The position numbers were made by a program, and so were the translations under genes. From an uncultured Spirochaetota bacterium (GTDB lineage Bacteria > Spirochaetota > Spirochaetia > SZUA-6 > Fen-1364), in the NCBI GenBank assembly GCA_963745235.1, contig CAVUXE010000059.1, positions 1 through 64,000 of the forward strand: DNA of 64,000 bases, given 5' to 3'. Positions within the stretch are counted from its first letter, which is position 1. Every line of letters begins with the position of its first letter. The notes beneath the pieces are model-generated. The model saw only the letters and a list, made by a program, of their open reading frames with translations, had not been told where the DNA came from and did not search any database. This document shows, piece after piece, positions 5,427 to 46,389 of the stretch.

Positions 5427-6843
5427 TGCGATGTATCTCCTCGAAGAACACCGTGAGCTTTTCCTTGTCCTTGCCGCCGGAAGCTGACTCCAGCCTGCTG
5501 GATGCATCGATGAGCTCCGGGCGGAGCCTCTGCATGACCTCTGCGACATTCTCCGGGCCAATGCCGCCGGCAATCCACAGGGGACCTTGACCACTGACTG
5601 CCCTGGCAAGCTCTTCCGGGATCCGTTTCCCCGTGCCGCCCGAGGCGTCGGCTGACCAGGCGTCTGCAAGCACGCGCGGGCAGCGGTAGAGGCTCATCCT
5701 CTGGACGTCCTTCATCTCCTTGACCCGCACGGCTTTGTAGTACGGAAATGCCAGCTCGGCGCACTCTTCGGGTCCTTCCTCCCCGTGGAATTGGACGGCA
5801 TCCACCAATCCCTCTTCCAGCGCGGAGCGCACGTCGGCGCCGAGCCGGGACGCCCCGTTTTCTCTCTCCGTCACAACGACGGCCACCTTCAGGCTGTCTA
5901 TGCCCGAGAGCTCGCGCAGGAGGGAAAGCGGGGCTCGTCTCCTGGACGGCGCCATCACGAATCCGAGCGCATCGGCTCCGAGGCTGACGGCTGCCTCCGC
6001 GTCCTGGGGACGGGTGATGCCGCAGACCTTGACCAGGGGGCGCCCGCGCAGTGCGCGCGCATACAGCCGTTGCCAGAAGTCTCCGGGTATCCGGTCGAAA
6101 CTTCCCAGCAGCGCGGGCACTCCCTCGGGAGACCGCATGGCGGTCTCCCCGACCAGAACGCCGTCGAACCCCCCCGACAGCGCGAAGCTCACGTCCTCCG
6201 GGCCGCGGATGCCGGATTCGAACACCAGCCGGGTCTTCCAGTTGATGCGAGGCCGCAGCGCAAGGGGGTGAGTGAGGTCGACGGTGAAGGTTGCAAGGTC
6301 CCGACAGTTGATCCCGACCAGCGAGGGCGCCAGGGATCGGCAACGCTCCACGTCGGCTGCGTCATGCACTTCCACCAGCGCCGCGAGCCCCCGCTTCTGC
6401 GCCGCTTGATGGAGGGAGACAAGGGTGCCCTCATCGAGAAGGGAGGCGATCAGGAGGACGGCGTCCGCTCCGGCCCGCCAGGACGTTTCGACGTCCTCCT
6501 CGTCCAGGAGGAAATCCTTGCGCAGCACGGCGACGCCGGGCAGCGCCCGCTTGATGCGCGCAAGGTCATCCAGTGATCCGCCGAAGCTGTCCTCCTCGGT
6601 CAGGACGGAGACGCTGCGCACGCCCGCGCGCGCGTAGGCCCGCGCCTGCTCCACCACGTCCACGTCCGGCGCAATGTCTCCCCGCGACGGCGAGCGGCGC
6701 TTGACCTCGCAGACCAGGAACGGGTCCCTGCCGAAGCTCTCCAGGGGGACATCCCGGGCGTCCCGCGCGCGCGCGCCGAGCCAGTGCCCTTCCCGCGCCA
6801 CCCGTTCCTTCCTGCGGGTGACGATCTTCTCAACGATTGTCAT
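5413..6843 (-). CDS. trpCF: Bifunctional indole-3-glycerol-phosphate synthase / phosphoribosylanthranilate isomerase
   Basis: TrpC motifs EVKRRSPSRG, LRKDF, GADAVLLI, ESGI, followed by TrpF motifs VKVCGIT, VQFHG, GGTG, IDASS. Confidence 0.93.
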   Translation of the reverse strand: MTIVEKIVTRRKERVAREGHWLGARARDARDVPLESFGRDPFLVCEVKRRSPSRGDIAPDVDVVEQARAYARAGVRSVSVLTEEDSFGGSLDDLARIKRALPGVAVLRKDFLLDEEDVETSWRAGADAVLLIASLLDEGTLVSLHQAAQKRGLAALVEVHDAADVERCRSLAPSLVGINCRDLATFTVDLTHPLALRPRINWKTRLVFESGIRGPEDVSFALSGGFDGVLVGETAMRSPEGVPALLGSFDRIPGDFWQRLYARALRGRPLVKVCGITRPQDAEAAVSLGADALGFVMAPSRRRAPLSLLRELSGIDSLKVAVVVTERENGASRLGADVRSALEEGLVDAVQFHGEEGPEECAELAFPYYKAVRVKEMKDVQRMSLYRCPRVLADAWSADASGGTGKRIPEELARAVSGQGPLWIAGGIGPENVAEVMQRLRPELIDASSRLESASGGKDKEKLTVFFEEIHRNAEV

Positions 6844-8463
6844 GCGGCGCTGACCTTGGCCGTCTTGGCCCCCGCCATGGATTCGCCCCTGATCCGCGCA
6901 AGAGTGCTTCGCGCTTCTCCGGATTCCAGGGCCTGGCGCGCCCTGAGGTACCCGTCCCCTATGTTCCGTGCGATTCCGCAGATGTAGAGGGCCGCGCCCG
7001 CGTTCAGCAGCACTGCCTCGCGGACGGCCTCGGGTCCGCCGCCGTCAAGGATGGCGAGAGCCATGGCGGCATTCTGGATTGCCGTTCCTCCCTTCAGAGC
7101 ATCCACCGTGGACCGCGTGATGCCGAACTCCTCCGGCGTGAGCATGTAATCCCGGCGGGCCCCGGTTTCGTCCACTTCCACGACGAGGGTGCGCGCCGCA
7201 GACGGAGATCTCATCCAGGCCGTCCTCCCCGTGCACCGCCATGACTCTGCGCACCCCGAGGAGATGGGCTGCTTCCGCCACGGGCCCGCAGAACGCGGGA
7301 TCGAACACGCCGATGAGCTGGTAGGAGGCATCCGCCGGGTTGGAGAGCGGGCCGATCAGGTTCATGACGCTCTTGACCCCCAGCTCGCTTCGCGCTCTTG
7401 CCGCGTGGCGCATTGCGCCGTGATAGGTGGGCGCGAAAAGGAAGCAGAAGCCGGTGGTGCGCAGCAGCTGTTCGCCGGTTGCCGGCGGAACATCCACGGG
7501 GACGCCCAGCTCGCGGTAGAAATCCGCGCTTCCGCACAGGGAGCTTGCCGCCCTGTTGCCGTGCTTCGCAACAAGGGCGCCGCAGGATGCCGCGACAATT
7601 GCCGCAAGGGAGGAGATGTTGAACGTGCCCAACCCGTCGCCTCCGGTCCCGCAGGTGTCCAGCGCCTTGCGGTCGCTCGCGAAGGGCTTCTTCTTGCGCC
7701 TGAGCACGGACGCAAATCCGGCCAGCGTATCCGGCGTGATGAGCTTCCCCGTCAGTGACGCAAGGACCCCCGCGATCTGGACGTCGGTGAGCTGGCCGTC
7801 GGTCAGCTCGTCCATGAAAGATTCAGCCTGGGCCCGGTCCATGGCCTTTCCCAGCTGCAGCGCGCCGAGGACCGCGGAGAGTGGAAACGGCTCCCGTCGA
7901 TACCGGAGGAAGTTGCGCAGGCAGCGCTTGCCGGTTTCCGAGGCAATCGATTCGGGATGGAACTGCACTCCTTCAATGATGTGCGTCGTATGGCGGACAC
8001 CCATGATCTCCCCGTCGGGAGAGACTGCGGTGATCTCCAGCTCCTCAGGGAGAGAGTCGCCGTCTATGACGAGGGAATGATACCGGGTGAACCGGGCGGT
8101 GCGCGGCAGGCCGCGGAAAAGCCCACGCCCGTCCAGTGACATCTCCTCCGTCTTGCCATGGACGATCCGGCGGGCAGTGACGATCCTCGCGCCGAATGCC
8201 TGTCCGATGGCCTGGTGGCCCAGGCATACGCCAAGGATCGGGACCGTGCCCGCCATGCGCTGGATGCACTCCACGCTGATCCCCGCTTCCTCGGGCCTGC
8301 CGGGACCCGGGGAGATCACGACGCCGGCCGGGGACAGGGAGATGATCTCGTCCACGGTGATCCTGTCGTTGCGAAACACTTCCACCGTGTCTTCCGTGAG
8401 CTCACTGAGGTACTGGTAGAGGTTGTGAGTGAAAGAATCGTAGTTGTCGATGATGACGTACAC
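6840..8463 (-). CDS. trpGD: Bifunctional anthranilate synthase component II / anthranilate phosphoribosyltransferase (frameshift near 7195)
   Basis: IDNYDSFT, SPGPGRP, GVCLGHQ, QFHPES; then DTCGTGGDG, AKHGNR, GLDEIS; C-terminus LNAGAALY in a shifted frame. Confidence 0.93.
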
Positions 8464-8465
8464 GG

Positions 8466-9884
8466 CTATTCCTCCTTGTATCCGATTGCCTTCGCGAGTG
8501 CGCCGAGCTTCGCCTCGGTCTCCTGGTATTCTTTCTCCGGCACCGAGTCATAGACGATCCCCGCTCCCGCCTGGAGAATCATCCGGTCTCCCTGCTTCAG
8601 CGCGCTCCTGATCGTGATGCACGAGTCCAGGGACCCGTCGGACTCGATGTGCGCCACGACCCCCGCGTAAAAGCCCCTTTTCTCCGGCTCGAGGGAATCG
8701 ATGACCTCGACTGCCCGGATCTTCGGAGCCCCCGAAACGGTGCCCGCGGGGAAGGTCGCGCGAAGCGCGTCCAGGCCGCTCTTGTCCTCCCGAAGCCTTC
8801 CTTCCACCTGGGAAACGATGTGCATCACGTGCGAGTAGCGCTCCACCTCCATGAACTCAGGCACCTCCACGCTGCCCGGCAGCGCAGACCCGGCCCAGGT
8901 CGTTTCTGGCAAGATCGACGAGCATGAGGTGCTCCGCCCGCTCTTTCTCGTCCGCCAGGAGCTCCTTTTCCAGCGCCGTGTCCTCCTCCGGGGTCGCTCC
9001 GCGGCGTCGGGTGCCGGCGAGCGGACGGATCATCGCCCGCCCATCCTTCGCCTTGACGTGGACCTCGGGGGAGGCGCCGAAGAGCTGGAAGTCCTCGAAG
9101 TCCAGGTAGAACATGTAGGGGGACGGGTTGAAGCTTCGCAGGGCACGATACGCTTCGATGGCAGGCATGCCGGGTGCGAAGCTCCACCCGTCGCGACAGG
9201 ACCCCCTGCAGGAGGTTCCCCTTGATGATCTCCTGGCGCACCGCCTCCACTCCGGCGAGGTACGCATCATGGTCGTCCGGTCGGGGACAGCCTCCACCGG
9301 CCAGCTTCTCTGCGCCGGATGCCATGAAATTGAAGTCCAGGTCATTGATGCGCGCTTCCGTCTCATCCAGCGCGCGGGAAAGGTCGATGCTCTTTCTCCC
9401 GGTAGTTCACGCCGACAAGCGAGATCGTGTCCGTGTAGTGGTCGAAGACGAGGAACACGTTCCCGAATATGAACATCGCATCCGGGATGCCGACCGGATC
9501 CGGCTTCTCCCGCAGGTGGATGGTGTCGAACCGGGCACAGTATTCATAGGACAGAAACCCGATGCCCCCGGTGGGCAGGGGGAACGGCGCGGTCAACCCC
9601 TCGTGCTGCCCGCTGAAGTGGGAAAGCACATCCAGGATGTCCTGCGCCTTCGTCTTGAGCGCGAGGGTGGCTCCGTCCCTGCTCATGAAGAACTCATCGC
9701 CTTTCTGAAAGACCCGAAAGGCCTCCCTTGCGAGAAGAAACGAGTACCTTTCCTTTCCCCTGTGGAAGGAGGCTGACTCCAGGAGCGCCCGGGCTTCGAG
9801 CTTCCTGGCAAGGGAGAGCGGCGTGAAGCGTTCTCCGTTGATGACCCGTATCAGGACTTTTTCTTTCTGCGTGGCAACCGCCAT
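8466..9884 (-). CDS. trpE: Anthranilate synthase component I (about three frameshifts near 9385, 9170 and 8890)
   Basis: [66 protein letters not shown] spread over four frames; AAGGAGG RBS. Confidence 0.92.
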
Positions 9885-10032: not shown

Positions 10033-10083
10033 CTATCTCCAGGACCACCACCAGTTCATCAGACAGGCGCGCGTCGAAATCAT
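10033..10083 (-). CDS. trpL: Trp operon leader peptide MISTRACLMNWWWSWR
   Basis: 16-codon ORF with four Trp codons, located between a promoter and alternative antiterminator/terminator hairpins upstream of trpE. Confidence 0.9.
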   Translation of the reverse strand: MISTRACLMNWWWSWR

Positions 10084-10089
10084 GGCTGG

Positions 10090-10119
10090 AACATACTGGA
10101 AAGCCGCCAGGAACGTCAA
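10090..10119 (-). promoter_or_regulatory. Sigma70-type promoter of the trp operon
   Basis: TTGACG-N18-TATGTT, 6 nt before the trpL ATG. Confidence 0.7.
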
Positions 10120-10651: not shown

Positions 10652-11509
10652 CTATTCCCCGAACACTTCCTCCAGGGCCGCCCTCATCACGCGGGGATCA
10701 GGATCGATACCCGTCCAGAGCTTGACCCCGATCACTCCCTGGTTGACCAGCATCCCGAGGCCGTCGATCACCCGGCATCCGATCTGCTCGGCGCTGTGGA
10801 TGAGCCGCGTGCGGGGCGGGTTGGGTATGACATCGGCCACCACCACCTGCGGCCGCAGGGTCTGGAAGTCAATGGGCAGCTCGGCACCCACGTCCGGGTA
10901 CAGGCCGATGGAGGTGGCGTTGATGACCACGTCGACCGATGCCGGCACTTTGAATCGCCCCTCCCACGGCAGGGAGCTCACCTTCACTCGTGTCCGCTCT
11001 GCAAGCAGCGCGGAAAGCTCGTCTCCGCGGTCCTTTCCGCGGTTGACCACCGTGATTCGGGCAACACCGGCCAGGGCGAGCTCCACCCCGATTGCGCGCG
11101 CGGCGCCGCCGGCGCCGAAGAGCAGGACGTTCTTTTCCCGGGGGTCGATGATTTCCCTGAGCGACTTCAGAAAGCCCTTGCCGTCCGTGTTCTCTCCGAC
11201 GAACCTGCTGCCCCGCCGCACGACGCAGTTGACCGCCCCCATCAGCCGCGCTGACTCGGCTATCTCATCCAGGAGCGGGATGACGGCGACCTTGTGCGGG
11301 ATTGTGCAGTTGAAGCCGGCAAAGCCGAGCGCCCGCGCGCCCCTGACGGCATCCGCGAGGTCCGCCGGGTCCACCTCCAGGGTCAGGTAGCGCCACGCCA
11401 GCCCGTGGTGGCGGAATGCCGCCTCCACCATGACCTGCGTCGGGTTCTCCGCGACCGGCTTGCCGAAGACGGCGGTGATCTCCTGCTTGAAGCTCAACGT
11501 TCTTTTCAT
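10652..11509 (-). CDS. aroE: Shikimate dehydrogenase
   Basis: GFNCTIPHK, GAVNC, ENTDGKG, GAGGAARA, INATSIG, GLGMLVNQ. The listed 715-aa ORF is an artefactual fusion with the upstream gene. Confidence 0.9.
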   Translation of the reverse strand: MKRTLSFKQEITAVFGKPVAENPTQVMVEAAFRHHGLAWRYLTLEVDPADLADAVRGARALGFAGFNCTIPHKVAVIPLLDEIAESARLMGAVNCVVRRGSRFVGENTDGKGFLKSLREIIDPREKNVLLFGAGGAARAIGVELALAGVARITVVNRGKDRGDELSALLAERTRVKVSSLPWEGRFKVPASVDVVINATSIGLYPDVGAELPIDFQTLRPQVVVADVIPNPPRTRLIHSAEQIGCRVIDGLGMLVNQGVIGVKLWTGIDPDPRVMRAALEEVFGE

Positions 11510-41205: not shown

Positions 41206-42888
41206 ATGCAGAAGCAGCCCTTCATATGGGAAACGCATGGAATCCACGTGGGAACGGGGGGAGATCACGTCACGCACGGCATCGACGACCTGGACAGCAT
41301 CGTCGAACAGGCTGTCGCAATCGGCTTTCCGTCCCTGACTTTCATCATCCACACGCCGCGCCTCACGAGGTTCCGCTACGCCAGCGAGCGTGCCACCGAC
41401 GTCAAGTTCATCCGCGGAGATGCCTCCTATTTCGCCTATACCGACACGATTGCGGGGCTGCGCCGGCGCCACGGGGGGCGCATCGATATCCGCTGCGGCG
41501 TGGAGCTCGAGTGGCTGGGCACGGGGCTGGGCATCCAGTGGAGCCGGGCAAAGCTGTTCCAGGCCCACGGCGCTGACTTTGTGGTGAGCTCGGTGCACTT
41601 CGCGCCCAACGGCGTGCCCTACGATGGCTCGAAGGAGGACACTGCCAGGCTGATCGAGGAGCGGGGCGGAGTGGAACAGCTCTGGGCCGCGTACTTCGAC
41701 GAAATGATCGAGATGGTGGACGCGGGCTGGCGGTTCATCTCCGTGGTCGGTCATCTCGATCTGCCCAAGCTCTTCGCTCCGCTGCCTTCCTGCCTCACGG
41801 AGGACAACGGCGCTGACACGGAAACCGAGAGGCGGCTCTCCACTCTGCTGGAGATGATCGCGGAGCATAACCTCGCGCTGGACGTGAACCTCGCGGGTCT
41901 GCGCAAGGGAGTGGGCATCTACCCGCATCCAAAGATACTGTCGAAGGCGCACACGCTGGGCATCTCGGTTGCAATCGGGACCGACACGCATGATCCCGCG
42001 GATCTCGGCAAGGACTACGCTGCCGGCCTGGAAGCCGTAAAGGCGGCGGGTTACCGCTACTACGTTTCCTTCTCCCGTGGCATCCCCGAAAAGCGGCCGC
42101 TTTCCCACGGCCTGGAGGGGCAGTTCAGGATCCTCAACCTCGGGACGGAGATCCTCAACCACAGGCTCGCGCGCGAGCGAAGGCTGGAGATTCCGCGGTT
42201 TTCCTTCGGGGGGGATTTTCGAGCTCTCGCGAGGGTGTTTCCGGAGTCATCGTCCCTGGGTTCGTTTCACGCTGTTCGCGTTCGAAAGGAAGAGCGGTCG
42301 GTTACCATCAGTGATCGGCTCCCCGCGTATCCGGGGGGAGAGACTCGGTACCTGTTCTCCCATCACCGTGACCTGCCCGGGACGCTTGCGATACTGTTGA
42401 ACACGCTGGCCTCGGAAGAGATCAACCTGGAGACGGCCTGGTTGAACTCTCTGGATGACGGGACCGCGACGGCGTACCTCACCCTTGATGGAACGCAGGA
42501 GGCGATTCGAGAAGCGGTGGAGTTCGTCCTGGGCACCGCGGGTGACCGGTTTCTTCGCATCGACACCGAGGTGCATGTCCGGCTTCCCCCCGTCAAGAAG
42601 GCCGCGGCGTATCTCCTGGAAGTCGACGGGGTGTGGCTGCCCATGCCCATCTCCCGTCACATGCTCATCACGGTCCACGGAAACCGCCCGGGCGTCCTTC
42701 TTGTCCTGCTCTCCGCCCTTGCTTCCCGCAACATCAACGTGGTAGATCTGCAGCTCGGCGCCCGGGGAGAAAAGGGATATGCGGCGCTGGGCGTCGGCGG
42801 TGACGAGCGGGATGTCGCCGAGCTTTTGACGCAGCTGGGACCTTCGTATCTCGAAGCGTCCCAAATCGTTCTGGGAGGGTTCCAATGA
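41206..42888 (+). CDS. PHP-domain (HisJ/histidinol-phosphatase-like) protein fused to two ACT domains
   Basis: CGVELE, DFVVSSVH, VGHLDLPK, GTDTHDP; C-terminal HRDLPGTL and HGNRPGVL ACT starts. Confidence 0.75.
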   Translation: MQKQPFIWETHGIHVGTGGDHVTHGIDDLDSIVEQAVAIGFPSLTFIIHTPRLTRFRYASERATDVKFIRGDASYFAYTDTIAGLRRRHGGRIDIRCGVELEWLGTGLGIQWSRAKLFQAHGADFVVSSVHFAPNGVPYDGSKEDTARLIEERGGVEQLWAAYFDEMIEMVDAGWRFISVVGHLDLPKLFAPLPSCLTEDNGADTETERRLSTLLEMIAEHNLALDVNLAGLRKGVGIYPHPKILSKAHTLGISVAIGTDTHDPADLGKDYAAGLEAVKAAGYRYYVSFSRGIPEKRPLSHGLEGQFRILNLGTEILNHRLARERRLEIPRFSFGGDFRALARVFPESSSLGSFHAVRVRKEERSVTISDRLPAYPGGETRYLFSHHRDLPGTLAILLNTLASEEINLETAWLNSLDDGTATAYLTLDGTQEAIREAVEFVLGTAGDRFLRIDTEVHVRLPPVKKAAAYLLEVDGVWLPMPISRHMLITVHGNRPGVLLVLLSALASRNINVVDLQLGARGEKGYAALGVGGDERDVAELLTQLGPSYLEASQIVLGGFQ

Positions 42889-43886
42889 CCATCAAAACAT
42901 TTCGCGGCGCGGCCCTGCGCCTGTTGCCGTTCCTTGTCGCCGTCCTGCCCGCCTTCCCGCAGGACCAGGGGCTGCCTGACGGCCTGTACGCCGAGATAAG
43001 AACCGCCCGGGGGACCATCGTGTGTTCCCTGGAGTACCAGAAGGCGCCCATGACGGTTTCCAGCTTCGTGGGACTTGCCGAGGGGACGCTCATGGCCAAC
43101 GGGGCTCGAGGGAAGAAGTTCTTCGACGGGCTTACCTTTCACCGCGTCGAGCCCGGGTTCGTGATCCAGGGCGGGGACCCCAAGGGCGACGGGACCGGAG
43201 GCCCGGGATACGAGTTCCCCAACGAAACCCGCCCCGACCTGAAGCATGACCGCGCCGGCACGCTCTCCATGGCCAACGCAGGACCGGATACAAACGGGAG
43301 CCAGTTCTTCATCACCCTCCGCGCCACGCCGAACCTGGACGGGGGCTACAACGTCTTCGGATACGTGGTGAAGGGGATGGACGTCGTGAACGCAACGCAG
43401 AAGGGTGACCAGATGACCAGCGTGCGGATCCTCCGTGTCGGTCCTGCCGCCACGGCGTTCACCGTGACACAGGACAGCTTCAACGCGCTGGTGGCAAAGG
43501 CCAAGGCATCTGAACGCGGAGCGGCTCTGGCGTTCATCATGAAGAAATGGCCGAACCTCACGACCACGAGGTCAGGCCTCATGTACGAAGTGCTGGAGAA
43601 GGGATCCGGACAGAGCCCTCCTCCGGGAGCCACGGTCAGCGTGAATTACACGGGCATGTTCCTGGACGGAAAAGTGTTCGACAGCACGCAAGCGCGCGGG
43701 ACGCCGGCGGTCATGCGGGTGGACAGGGTCATCAAGGGATGGTCCGAGGCCCTCCTCGCAATGAATCGGGGGGAGAGGCGCATTCTCGTGATCCCCCCCG
43801 AGCTTGCCTACGGAGAGCGAGGGTACCCCGGGGTCATCCCCGCCAACGCCTTCCTCGTGTTCGACGTGCAGCTGATCGACTTCTGA
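42885..43886 (+). CDS. Exported cyclophilin-FKBP dual peptidyl-prolyl isomerase
   Basis: FHRV..FVIQGGDP, SMANAGPDTNGSQFFIT; then YTG..LDG.VFDS, VIKGW, PPELAYG. Confidence 0.93.
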   Translation: MTIKTFRGAALRLLPFLVAVLPAFPQDQGLPDGLYAEIRTARGTIVCSLEYQKAPMTVSSFVGLAEGTLMANGARGKKFFDGLTFHRVEPGFVIQGGDPKGDGTGGPGYEFPNETRPDLKHDRAGTLSMANAGPDTNGSQFFITLRATPNLDGGYNVFGYVVKGMDVVNATQKGDQMTSVRILRVGPAATAFTVTQDSFNALVAKAKASERGAALAFIMKKWPNLTTTRSGLMYEVLEKGSGQSPPPGATVSVNYTGMFLDGKVFDSTQARGTPAVMRVDRVIKGWSEALLAMNRGERRILVIPPELAYGERGYPGVIPANAFLVFDVQLIDF

Positions 43887-43890
43887 CCTG

Positions 43891-43922
43891 TTGACACGAC
43901 ACGCCCGTCCCGCGTATATAAT
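43891..43922 (+). promoter_or_regulatory. Promoter of the trpB2 leader
   Basis: TTGACA at 43891 and TATATAAT at 43915-43922; the spacer to TATAAT is long (20 nt). Confidence 0.6.
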
Positions 43923-43929
43923 GGCCGTG

Positions 43930-44007
43930 ATGAGAAATGTCCGTGCGCTGGCAGTCAACCTGAACTGGTGGTGGTGGATCACGGGGAGGAAACCGCGGTC
44001 CGCCTGA
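43930..44007 (+). CDS. trpL: Trp leader peptide MRNVRALAVNLNWWWWITGRKPRSA
   Basis: Four consecutive TGG codons, upstream of antiterminator/terminator hairpins and trpB2; an alternative in-frame ATG lies at 43921. Confidence 0.9.
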   Translation: MRNVRALAVNLNWWWWITGRKPRSA

Positions 44008-44027
44008 AAAGGCGTTTCAGCACAGGA

Positions 44028-44081
44028 GACCGCAAGCGGTTACCCTCCCCTGAGCAAGAGGGTGACCGCCTGCGGTTTTTT
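44028..44081 (+). terminator. First (attenuator) terminator of the trpB2 leader
   Basis: ACCGCAAGCGGTTACCCTC / GAGGGTGACCGCCTGCGGT stem with a T6 tail. Its 5' arm is complementary to GGGGAGGAAACCGC in the leader ORF. Confidence 0.85.
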
Positions 44082-44086
44082 CATTG

Positions 44087-44118
44087 AAAGACCCGGGCCA
44101 TGGCCCGGGTCTTTTTTT
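44087..44118 (+). terminator. Second terminator of the trpB2 leader
   Basis: Perfect 28-nt palindrome AAAGACCCGGGCCATGGCCCGGGTCTTT running into 7 T. Confidence 0.85.
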
Positions 44119-44176
44119 GAAGCAGGACTGGTGGCGGCCGTGAGCCGCGGCAAAGTCTTTTTCAAAGGAGTCTCTC

Positions 44177-45542
44177 ATGACGGACGACAGGATCTTCCAG
44201 CTCCCCACCCGGGAGATACCCAAGAAGTGGCTGAACATTCAGCCGTCCCTTCCCGAGCCCCTCCCCCCCATGCTCAACCCCGCGGACGGCAAGCCTGTCC
44301 CGCTGGAGGCCTTTACCCCGCTGTTTCCCATGGGACTGCTGGAGCAGGAAGTGTCCCAGCAGCGGGAGATAGCCATTCCGGATGAGGTCCTCAAGGTGTA
44401 CTCGCTGTTCCGCCCCACGCCGCTCATCCGCGCAAAGTTCCTGGAGGAGGCGCTGGGCACCCCCGCAATGATCTTTTTCAAGAACGAGAGCGTGACTCCC
44501 ACCGGCAGCCACAAGCCCAACACGGCCATCCCCCAGACCTACTACAACCAGAAGGAAGGCGTGAAGAAGCTGGTGACTGAAACAGGCGCCGGGCAGTGGG
44601 GCAGCGCGCTCGCTTTTGCCGGTGCTCATTTCAATGTCGAGATCAACGTATTCATGGTCCGCGCGTCCTTCGAGCAGAAGCCGTATCGCAAGATCATGAT
44701 GGAAAGCTACGGGGCGAAGGTGCATCCCAGCCCTTCGAAGGAGACCCAGATCGGCAGGAAGCTCCAGGAGGACAAGAAGAACATGCCCGGCTCCCTGGGC
44801 ATCGCGATCAGCGAGGCCGTGGAGGTCGCGGCCACTTCAAAGGGAACGGTGAAGTACTCCCTCGGCTCCGTGCTGAACCACGTCCTCATGCACCAGACCG
44901 TCATTGGTCTGGAAGCGCGCGCCGTGCTGGAGGACCTGGGGCTCATGCCGGACATCATCATCGGCTGCCATGGGGGAGGGAGCAACTTCGGCGGCATTTC
45001 CCTTCCCTTCATGGAGGACAAGATCACCGGGAAAGAGGAACATCGAGTTCGTTGCCTCTGAGCCGCTGGCGTGCCCGTCGCTCAGCAGAGGGATCTACGC
45101 GTATGACTTCGGAGACGCGGGAAAACTGATACCGCTGGCCAAGATGTACACCCTGGGTCACGGGTTCATTCCGCCCGCGGTCCATGCCGGCGGCCTGCGC
45201 TATCACGGCGCCGCCCCCATTGTGTCGCTCCTGGTGAACAAGGGGCTTATCCGCGCCGAGGCGCTGCGGCAGAAGGAGACGTTCGAAGCCGCGGTGCTCT
45301 TTGCCCGCACCGAGGGCATCATCCCGGCGCCGGAATCCGCGCACGCCATTGCCTCGGCAATCAGGGCGGCAAAGAAGTGCAAGGAAACGGGGGAGAAGAA
45401 GGTGATCCTCTTCAACCTCTCGGGGCACGGTCATTTCGACATGTCCGCGTACGAGCAGTACTTCGCGGGCAAGCTGGAGGACTACGAGTATCCCGAGGAG
45501 GCGGTCAGGAAGGCGGAGCAGGATCTGCCGAAGGTAGTGTAG
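44177..45542 (+). CDS. trpB2: TrpB2, stand-alone tryptophan synthase beta-like PLP enzyme (frameshift near 45035)
   Basis: [57 protein letters not shown]. Confidence 0.93.
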
Positions 45543-45582: not shown

Positions 45583-46389
45583 TTATCGTCCCAGGTATTT
45601 GTCTCGCGCCATCTCGAACCAGCGGTACACCTTCTCGAAAACATCCAGGTAGTCCTGGTATTGGAGCTTGACGCGGATATAGTCGGTGAGCTCCGGGGAG
45701 CCCATCTTTCTTCCCTCCATGAGCAGCGGGTTGTCCCGGTGCACCAGGGCGCTGAACTGCCTGTACTCTTCGATCAGCTCCTTGTCCACGCTGTTTTCCG
45801 CCAGTGTCTGCAGGAACAGGGACTCCAGGTCGATCAACCAGCCGTACACCATGGCGAGGCCGTGAATGACGCGGTACTCCTTGTCCGTGAAGATGATGAA
45901 AGGCAGCTCGTTGTCGACAATCCGCAGCTCGCGAAAGTCGAACAGCCCGTCAGGGAAGACCTCGGCATCCAGGCCGGGAGACCGGTCAGCGGCAATCCCC
46001 TCCGGCGGATCGAGCTGCTCGACGATCCCGGCCGCACTTTCCTTGATCACCCGGTAGAGCTCCTTCTGTTCGTCGCTGCTCGTCGGCGGATCCGGGAAGC
46101 TCTCGAACAACGCTGTCCCCGAGTGCCGGGAGAACTCCTTGAGGATCCCGGCGACTGTCATGTATACCTTCGCCGCATGGGCTTCGAAAGGCTTGCCGGC
46201 GCAGTGCTCGTTCACGAGCGGGAGCGCGATCTTGTAGAGGTTCTTGACCAGAGCCGCCTTTTCACCCTGGTCCTCCGGCTCCCGAAACCCGTTCCAGATC
46301 TCCAGCGGCTTGACGCCGTCAATCGTCTGCAGATCGAAAAACAACTCCCGAACGAATTGCCCGGCCCGTTCTCCCTTTTCTTCATGCAT
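45583..46389 (-). CDS. Hypothetical protein
   Basis: 268-aa ORF with protein-like composition, overlapping the pgl stop codon. Confidence 0.7.
   Translation of the reverse strand: MHEEKGERAGQFVRELFFDLQTIDGVKPLEIWNGFREPEDQGEKAALVKNLYKIALPLVNEHCAGKPFEAHAAKVYMTVAGILKEFSRHSGTALFESFPDPPTSSDEQKELYRVIKESAAGIVEQLDPPEGIAADRSPGLDAEVFPDGLFDFRELRIVDNELPFIIFTDKEYRVIHGLAMVYGWLIDLESLFLQTLAENSVDKELIEEYRQFSALVHRDNPLLMEGRKMGSPELTDYIRVKLQYQDYLDVFEKVYRWFEMARDKYLGR

Follow-up and report, generated by a model that had tools for sequence, protein, structure and literature searches.

The window, as the whole stretch of 64,000 nucleotides analysed here is called, derives from the genome of an uncultured Spirochaetia bacterium (61% GC, 86% complete) and carries a leader region between a peptidyl-prolyl isomerase gene, which ends at 43886, and a stand-alone trpB2 gene, which starts at 44177. 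The isomerase gene ends 5 nt upstream of a -35 box, with no terminator on this strand. A convergent ORF ending at 45583 lies downstream of trpB2, and a trp operon that includes trpB1 is located 34 kb from trpB2 on the opposite strand. The features of the leader and its gene, together with the leader of trpE, are as follows:

43891..43922, + strand: promoter-like site, with TTGACA at 43891-43896 and an AT-rich, -10-like stretch at 43915-43922
43930..44007, + strand: putative trpL leader peptide ORF of 25 codons, with four consecutive TGG (Trp) codons at 43966-43977 and the stop codon at 44005
43983..44050, + strand: predicted first antiterminator (ON state), in which 43983-44000 pairs with 44028-44050 and captures the 5' arm of T1
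44030..44081, + strand: predicted terminator T1 (OFF state), a G-C-closed stem at 44030-44075 (-31.4 kcal/mol) followed by U6 at 44076-44081
44068..44098, + strand: predicted relay helix, a second antiterminator (ON state) that pairs the 3' arm and U tract of T1 with the 5' arm of T2
44090..44118, + strand: predicted terminator T2 (OFF state), a stem at 44090-44111 (-19.0 kcal/mol) followed by U7 at 44112-44118
44125..44162, + strand: third hairpin T3, a stem at 44125-44158 followed by U5
44164..44170, + strand: Shine-Dalgarno-like AAAGGAG of trpB2, a purine-rich GGAG-type site kept in relatives
44177..45542, + strand: trpB2, a stand-alone TrpB-like PLP enzyme, both frameshifted pieces of which match NF009057/TIGR01415
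9914..10083, - strand: trpE leader, with an ORF containing three Trp codons, an antiterminator, T1, a relay (-20.4) and T2

TrpB2 is described in the excerpted text of PMC2700814 as a tryptophan synthase that scavenges indole, a role that fits induction when Trp is short. A frameshift splits the gene near 45030-45040, and the best 20 matches in relatives have no internal stop; trpE and trpD are frameshifted as well (about 8860-9370 and 6840-7050), and their counterparts in relatives are mostly intact. All three frameshifts are probably indel errors of long-read assembly. The leader anatomy does not appear to be an assembly artefact, because the leader is close enough in sequence to the leaders of relatives. 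Contigs from two peat metatranscriptome runs, in which a small share of the window is represented, touch parts of the trpB2 coding region only and leave the leader uncovered. A search of the genome, as far as its 86% completeness allows, gave no match to TrpR or TRAP. Upstream in the window, at 41206-42888 (+), a HisJ-family phosphatase carries a C-terminal fusion matching the regulatory end of phosphoglycerate dehydrogenase.

The leader ORF and its run of four Trp codons lie where the original prediction had placed them. A consensus promoter scan scored 0 sites, the TTGACA site at 43891-43922 included, and transcription would start near 43927-43930, at or next to the trpL start codon. The ORF has no Shine-Dalgarno sequence, and its translation is probably leaderless or nearly so, as suggested by the fixed spacing between TTGAC and the start codon in relatives: 36-41 nt in 25/25 trpB2 leaders listed and 35-40 nt in 23/24 trpE leaders, such that TTGAC lies 35-41 nt upstream of the leader start in 48/49 leaders listed when the two sets are taken together. 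If trpL is leaderless, read-through transcripts from the upstream gene would go unsensed and should end at T1 or T2. The region upstream of the trpE leader (10083-10118, -) likewise carries TTGAC followed by a leader ORF without a Shine-Dalgarno sequence.

The hairpins downstream of the Trp codons also correspond to the predicted ones. The first antiterminator begins 6 nt past the last Trp codon and overlaps the 5' arm of T1; its core (43983-43996 with 44036-44050) had been predicted, and four extra pairs (43997-44000 with 44028-44031) lengthen it to a helix of -33.1 kcal/mol that includes a nested GAAA hairpin. T1 and T2 are positioned as claimed, and the relay was recovered with the 13 pairs expected of it, including three G-U pairs, with C44073 bulged, a CATT loop and a folding energy of -15.4 kcal/mol. 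Folding of the entire leader yielded a z score of -6.8 against shuffled sequences, with 0/200 as good, and the fold contains a hairpin that takes in the antiterminator strand together with the last Trp codon, a candidate for the 1:2 protector or pause hairpin of trpL-type attenuators. The T2 3' arm and tail occur once in the genome and thus do not represent a genome-wide repeat. As for the weaker third stem with a T5 run that the original prediction had noted, T3 is present, and its standing as a conserved terminator did not hold: it scored as a terminator in 1/25 leaders, the one at this locus, and its site is occupied by a small GC hairpin without a U tract in most relatives of the same family and is empty in the four closest loci of a second family. 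For this lack of conservation T3 was rejected as a third terminator or a third relay; it is probably not a regulatory terminator.

Together, these elements almost certainly make up a ribosome-mediated tryptophan attenuator; from the sequence we infer leader translation, Trp dependence and termination at both sites. When Trp is ample, the ribosome would reach the stop codon and mask the first antiterminator strand, T1 would form, and most transcripts would end there. For polymerases that leak through, T1 would stay folded, the T2 5' arm would remain free, and T2 would stop them. When charged Trp-tRNA is scarce, the ribosome would stall at the Trp codons, and the first antiterminator would take up the T1 5' arm; the T1 3' arm so freed would capture the emerging T2 5' arm through the relay, neither terminator would form in time, and trpB2 would be transcribed. 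The predicted order of events is compatible with the layout of the RNA, as the first antiterminator is complete at 44050, ahead of the T1 3' arm, and the relay at 44098, ahead of the T2 3' arm. With the ribosome placed at the stop codon, T1 and then T2 fold in turn.

Attenuators normally rely on an antiterminator that is kinetically favoured though less stable than the terminator it displaces. The energies and barriers computed here, all nearest-neighbour estimates without polymerase, fit that pattern. For the passage from the first antiterminator to T1, barriers of 25.6, 18.4, 10.3 and 5.0 kcal/mol were obtained with free RNA beginning at 43982, 43985, 43988 and 43991, which represent stalls on Trp 2, 3 and 4 and on the next codon if 13 nt are assumed to be covered from the A site. 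T2 is favoured over the relay at equilibrium; its advantage is 9 kcal/mol when the fragment is folded in isolation and 3.4 when the antiterminator is retained, and the relay state is more stable than T2 in only 19/57 clusters of the comparative set described below. The barrier on the path from relay to T2 is 9.6-17.7 kcal/mol here, has a median of 9.5 over the 57 clusters, and reaches at least 8 in 44/57. On these models the ON state is metastable and the relay acts as a kinetic trap, not an equilibrium state, one that we infer would hold long enough.

Each half of this design has a precedent. In the hisL leader of Salmonella and E. coli, the OFF state consists of hairpins A:B, C:D and E:F and the ON state of B:C and D:E (PMC4046918, excerpted text). 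As in hisL, one stalled ribosome would flip a chain of hairpins by way of two antiterminator helices, with the relay corresponding to D:E; in E. coli, however, the middle hairpin has no U tract and one terminator was detected, whereas here the middle hairpin, with its U6, is a predicted terminator, and the leader carries Trp rather than His codons and is probably leaderless. By its predicted structure, then, the trpB2 leader works like hisL and is not a member of the hisL type. For two terminators the precedent is erm(K), in which two adjacent intrinsic terminators follow one leader peptide (PMC4335068, excerpted text). The likeness, by description, lies in this arrangement of a single leader peptide and a terminator pair; the difference is that stalling in erm(K) is macrolide-induced and the gene codes for a resistance methylase, whereas hungry Trp codons and trp genes are involved here. 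Termination at both ermK terminators has reportedly been shown by experiment. With trpL of E. coli the leader shares tandem Trp codons, an antiterminator just 3' of them and a GC-rich, U-tract terminator before trp genes; trpL, unlike this leader, has four segments and one terminator. The textbook mechanism is accordingly left unchanged, with hisL as the precedent for the cascade and erm(K) for the pair of terminators. In the trpB2 leader a cascade of the his type is probably combined with a pair of terminators, as a conserved and functional variation on the textbook switch.

Candidate attenuators before trpB2 operons are already known, as predicted for trpB2A of Corynebacterium diphtheriae (PMC1262725, excerpted text). 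In the rimP leaders of some Gammaproteobacteria, a second terminator in tandem and a potential antiterminator have been predicted; unlike the trpB2 leader, these have no amino-acid leader peptide described in the excerpted text, are thought to be protein-controlled, and are a prediction only (PMC2965389). The literature searched, the coverage of which was limited and the supplements of which (e.g. the terminator lists of PMC2965389) may list such leaders, yielded no account of trp leaders with a relayed double terminator, and a look-up by sequence gave nothing similar. Nothing closer appeared in the excerpts of PMC5864092, PMC5794164, PMC4615214 and PMC1854888 or in the reference list of PMC11721399. 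In Rfam, no family reached its gathering score and no Trp_leader match was obtained up to E=10; the best sub-threshold match was Leu_leader, which covers the terminator hairpins and scores 41.3 of 50 bits.

Within this genome, tandem pairs of compact, strong terminators are rare: a genome scan found 5 adjacent pairs among 854 hairpin-plus-U sites. The two trp leaders account for 3 of these pairs, T2/T3 among them, and the other 2 have weak tails. The original prediction had asked whether the relay outdoes the pairing of random terminators. For this copy alone it does not clearly do so: against pairs drawn from 182 other strong terminators of the genome, 687/10000 (7%) were as good with tracts included and 2699/10000 were as good on stems only, and pair-shuffled T2 sequences equalled the trpB2 relay in 14% and 20% of trials in two shuffle tests. 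In a single genome, the trpB2 relay is thus not clearly beyond chance. The relay of the trpE copy outdoes it against the same nulls (154/10000 with tracts, 262/10000 on stems only). Tandem terminators in other amino-acid leaders, which had also been anticipated, were not found in this genome: the leaders of an ilvB-like and an ilvD-like gene have one terminator each, and the genome scan, which may miss weak terminators, picked up no leader of his, phe, leu or thr genes that carries a strong one. The double-terminator design is trp-specific in this genome. The ilvB-like leader (G000:C45, about 11190-11360, +) and the ilvD-like leader (G000:C35, about 189400-189570, -), named from the look of the protein starts rather than by a family scan, encode unannotated Leu/Val/Ile-rich leader peptides before a single strong terminator.

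Relatives of the locus were collected by protein homology, such that their loci were unselected for terminators (30 trpB2 loci fetched, 61 genomes searched). Among the trpB2 loci of 29 relatives, 26 have an ORF with a Trp run and 25 the leader with both T1 and T2; of the others, one has an assembly gap after T1 and three, from distant relatives, have no leader. At the trpE loci of 29 relatives a Trp leader was found in 23/29 and a leader with T1 and T2 in 22/29, the remainder being one locus with T1 alone and six without a leader. A wider pattern search, which required Trp codons and two GC-closed U-tract hairpins and no pairing between them, matched 59/401 Spirochaetota genomes, 13/201 genomes of the phylum of a record titled Deltaproteobacteria, and at least 119 metagenome stretches. 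Distinct leaders with T1 and T2 numbered 27 from the 50 phylum loci read and 27 from the 119 metagenome loci listed; these 54 distinct leaders among the matches listed were added, the other loci being duplicates or without a short Trp ORF and terminator. The comparative set, made up of the relatives, locus L109 and the pattern leaders among the matches listed, comprises 98 distinct leaders in 57 clusters. Set aside from it were 12 entries parsed with a single terminator: four with a decayed T1 tail, five that are tandem and mis-parsed (the relay folds in four of these), two with truly one terminator and one non-leader. Of 13 loci added later, nine form a relay with an energy between -11 and -20, one was mis-parsed, one shows T1 only, and two are non-leaders.

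The genes that follow the 98 leaders are trpB2 (41), trpE (19), trpB1 (3) and trpG/D (1), and 34 have no match to the references used; of eight of these 34 that were tested, six are trpE-like and two are short, matchless fragments. The original prediction of a lineage-specific design is difficult to reconcile with this distribution, in which the double terminator recurs outside Spirochaetota in the deltaproteobacterial phylum, as well as in other Spirochaetota classes and metagenomes, and with the single terminators of the ilv leaders. Two Latescibacterota trpB2 loci (L091, L132) carry a Trp leader and two consecutive weak-tailed hairpins in which the 5' arm and loop of T2 repeat the T1 5' arm; a relay was suggested there by complementarity seen by eye, but the folds did not isolate one, and the case is a lead only. 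At L229, L275 and L303, double-terminator Trp leaders precede a protein of which only a short start is visible, and NCBIfam gave no match to that start. The region upstream of a Bacteroidota trpB2 (L092) contains two successive short ORFs with Trp codons and one terminator, after the first. Upstream of trpE at L052, L054 and L055 are structured leaders without a Trp run, which belong to another family.

Across the 57 clusters, the relay fares better than it does in the single genome. It covers at least half of the T2 5' arm in 57/57 and beats pair-shuffled T2 in 55/57, with p<=0.05 in 41 and p 0.14 at the trpB2 locus here. The caveat attached to the original prediction, that A-tract/U-tract pairing might be the sole cause, does not account for this: with the A/U tracts left out, the relay mean was -11.3 versus -6.3, with 36/57 clusters at p<=0.05, and on stems only 43/57 clusters placed within the best 5% when ranked with 179 terminators of the genome. 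When cognate T1/T2 pairs were compared with swapped ones on stems only, 0/10000 swaps did as well, and the result was the same after the clusters, which are kin, were merged to 27 and 10 groups. The first antiterminator captures at least 6 nt of the T1 5' arm in 56/57 clusters. In 22 aligned close leaders, 82-94% of cells are paired for the first-antiterminator helices, 94% for the relay and 91.5% for the ON helices overall; covariation of the ON helices, which are conserved or wobble-varied, was not above shuffles in these leaders (113-351 of 500), while T1 and T2 covary beyond shuffles (0/500). In the trpE leaders of genomes G017, G005 and G038 and the trpB2 leader of G022, the T1 tail has decayed and the relay (-15 to -21) and T2 are kept; these leaders could act only via the relay, because relay and T2 are what remain.

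These patterns must be weighed against the idea that the locus is a one-terminator attenuator, working at T1, to which a duplicated, unregulated T2 was added that scales expression or insulates trpB2 from isomerase read-through, the relay being a by-product. Duplication is a real rival because the T2 5' arm often repeats the T1 5' arm, and the mirror pairing of T1 5' with T2 3' also beats swaps (-9.7 vs -8.1); insulation would suit an isomerase gene that ends so close to the -35 box with no same-strand terminator, and an unregulated T2 would suit its advantage at equilibrium. Duplication alone, however, would predict equal mirror pairing, and the relay is the stronger of the two in 34/57 clusters (p=2e-4), 19/27 groups (p=0.003) and 7/10 groups (p=0.027), a bias in direction that counts against it. 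Moreover, the T1 stem itself is mismatched at a base paired in the relay in 16/25 trpB2 leaders and the reverse occurs once, although these 16 cases represent few independent events and the first antiterminator also constrains the T1 5' arm. The relay further draws on loop or mismatch bases of T2 in 26/57 clusters; some leaders have a tail-less T1; the gene upstream of the trpE leader is divergent, such that insulation is unneeded there; and a GC-rich U7 terminator that could not be opened would limit induction. The by-product reading is on this evidence decidedly unlikely, and the comparisons support selection on the relay helix, which is very probably functional.

Granting the relay, T1 could still be a middle hairpin or pause site, as in E. 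coli hisL, which works in this way with a middle hairpin lacking a U tract; all regulated termination would then occur at T2, and the T1 U run would exist to pair with the T2 A run. The decayed T1 tails of the leaders named above fit such a his-type cascade with one working terminator, as does the pairing in the relay of a mean of 4.4 U among the first 8 bases of the T1 tail. Against it, T1 has at least 6 U of 8 in 16/16 clusters in which the relay pairs three or fewer, a group that is partly pattern-selected and that includes the homology-found G048, G031, G043 and G038, where T2 has no A run, and 6-8 U are present in T1 of all but 2/24 motif-scored trpB2 leaders, the two being one assembly gap and one decayed tail. 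In most carriers T1 probably terminates transcription in its own right, because its U tract persists even where the relay makes no use of it, and the one-terminator cascade appears unlikely, though not negligible. It is very improbable that T2 serves antisense transcription from the convergent gene or that the trpB2 promoter lies after T2, both of which the original prediction had raised against itself. T2 is indeed perfectly palindromic and has a short A run, and the convergent ORF does lie downstream, but T2 faces the sense direction, its antisense tail here is three U, and at least 6 A among the 8 bases before the T2 stem occur in only 7/57 clusters; many relatives have just 28-39 nt between T2 and the start codon, and the sequence that follows T2 here showed no promoter-like site. 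We therefore regard it as reasonably probable, on the comparative sequence evidence, that the locus is a ribosome-mediated Trp attenuator in which T1 and T2 both terminate, in series, under one sensor.

The trpE leader has the element order that the original prediction attributed to it, from the ORF with three Trp codons through antiterminator, T1 and relay to T2. That the two leaders are unrelated in sequence and independent instances of the design is doubtful: they align collinearly (score 40 against a shuffle mean of 22, 0/500 under a lenient null), the trpB2 T1 pairs better with the trpE T2 than with its own (-19.6 vs -16.9), and leaders of the two genes have stem bases in common in other lineages. 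Collinear alignment, cross-pairing and common stem bases make it likely that both descend from one ancestral trp leader rather than from two inventions.

Single attenuators leak, which limits their regulatory range. With two terminators under one sensor the leaks would multiply, and neither a second sensor nor a repressor protein would be needed; the benefit is probably a smaller OFF leak in cells in which no Trp repressor was detected. On balance we lean, if only slightly, toward a broader proposal: that these leaders constitute a class of trp attenuator that is ancient, widely distributed and hitherto undescribed, and that occurs across the classes of Spirochaetota, in deltaproteobacterial lineages and probably in Latescibacterota. 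In this class one stall would open two terminators by a domino of helices, OFF leaks would multiply such that attenuation by itself covers the range for which E. coli needs a repressor plus an attenuator, and gain or loss of the T1 U tract would interconvert the design with the his-type single-terminator cascade. If true, this would give repressor-less bacteria a compact means of shutting down a costly trp pathway tightly, and it could be used directly as a plan for RNA switches that leak less. The design sharply predicts a pair of Trp-dependent 3' ends spaced by about 36 nt. Natural variants that have or lack the T1 U tract would suit the study of how a co-transcriptional decision is handed over from hairpin to hairpin. 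Natural losses of the T1 U tract with relay and T2 retained, which yield the his-type single-terminator form, are seen in three trpE leaders (L042, L048, L058) and one trpB2 leader (L021).
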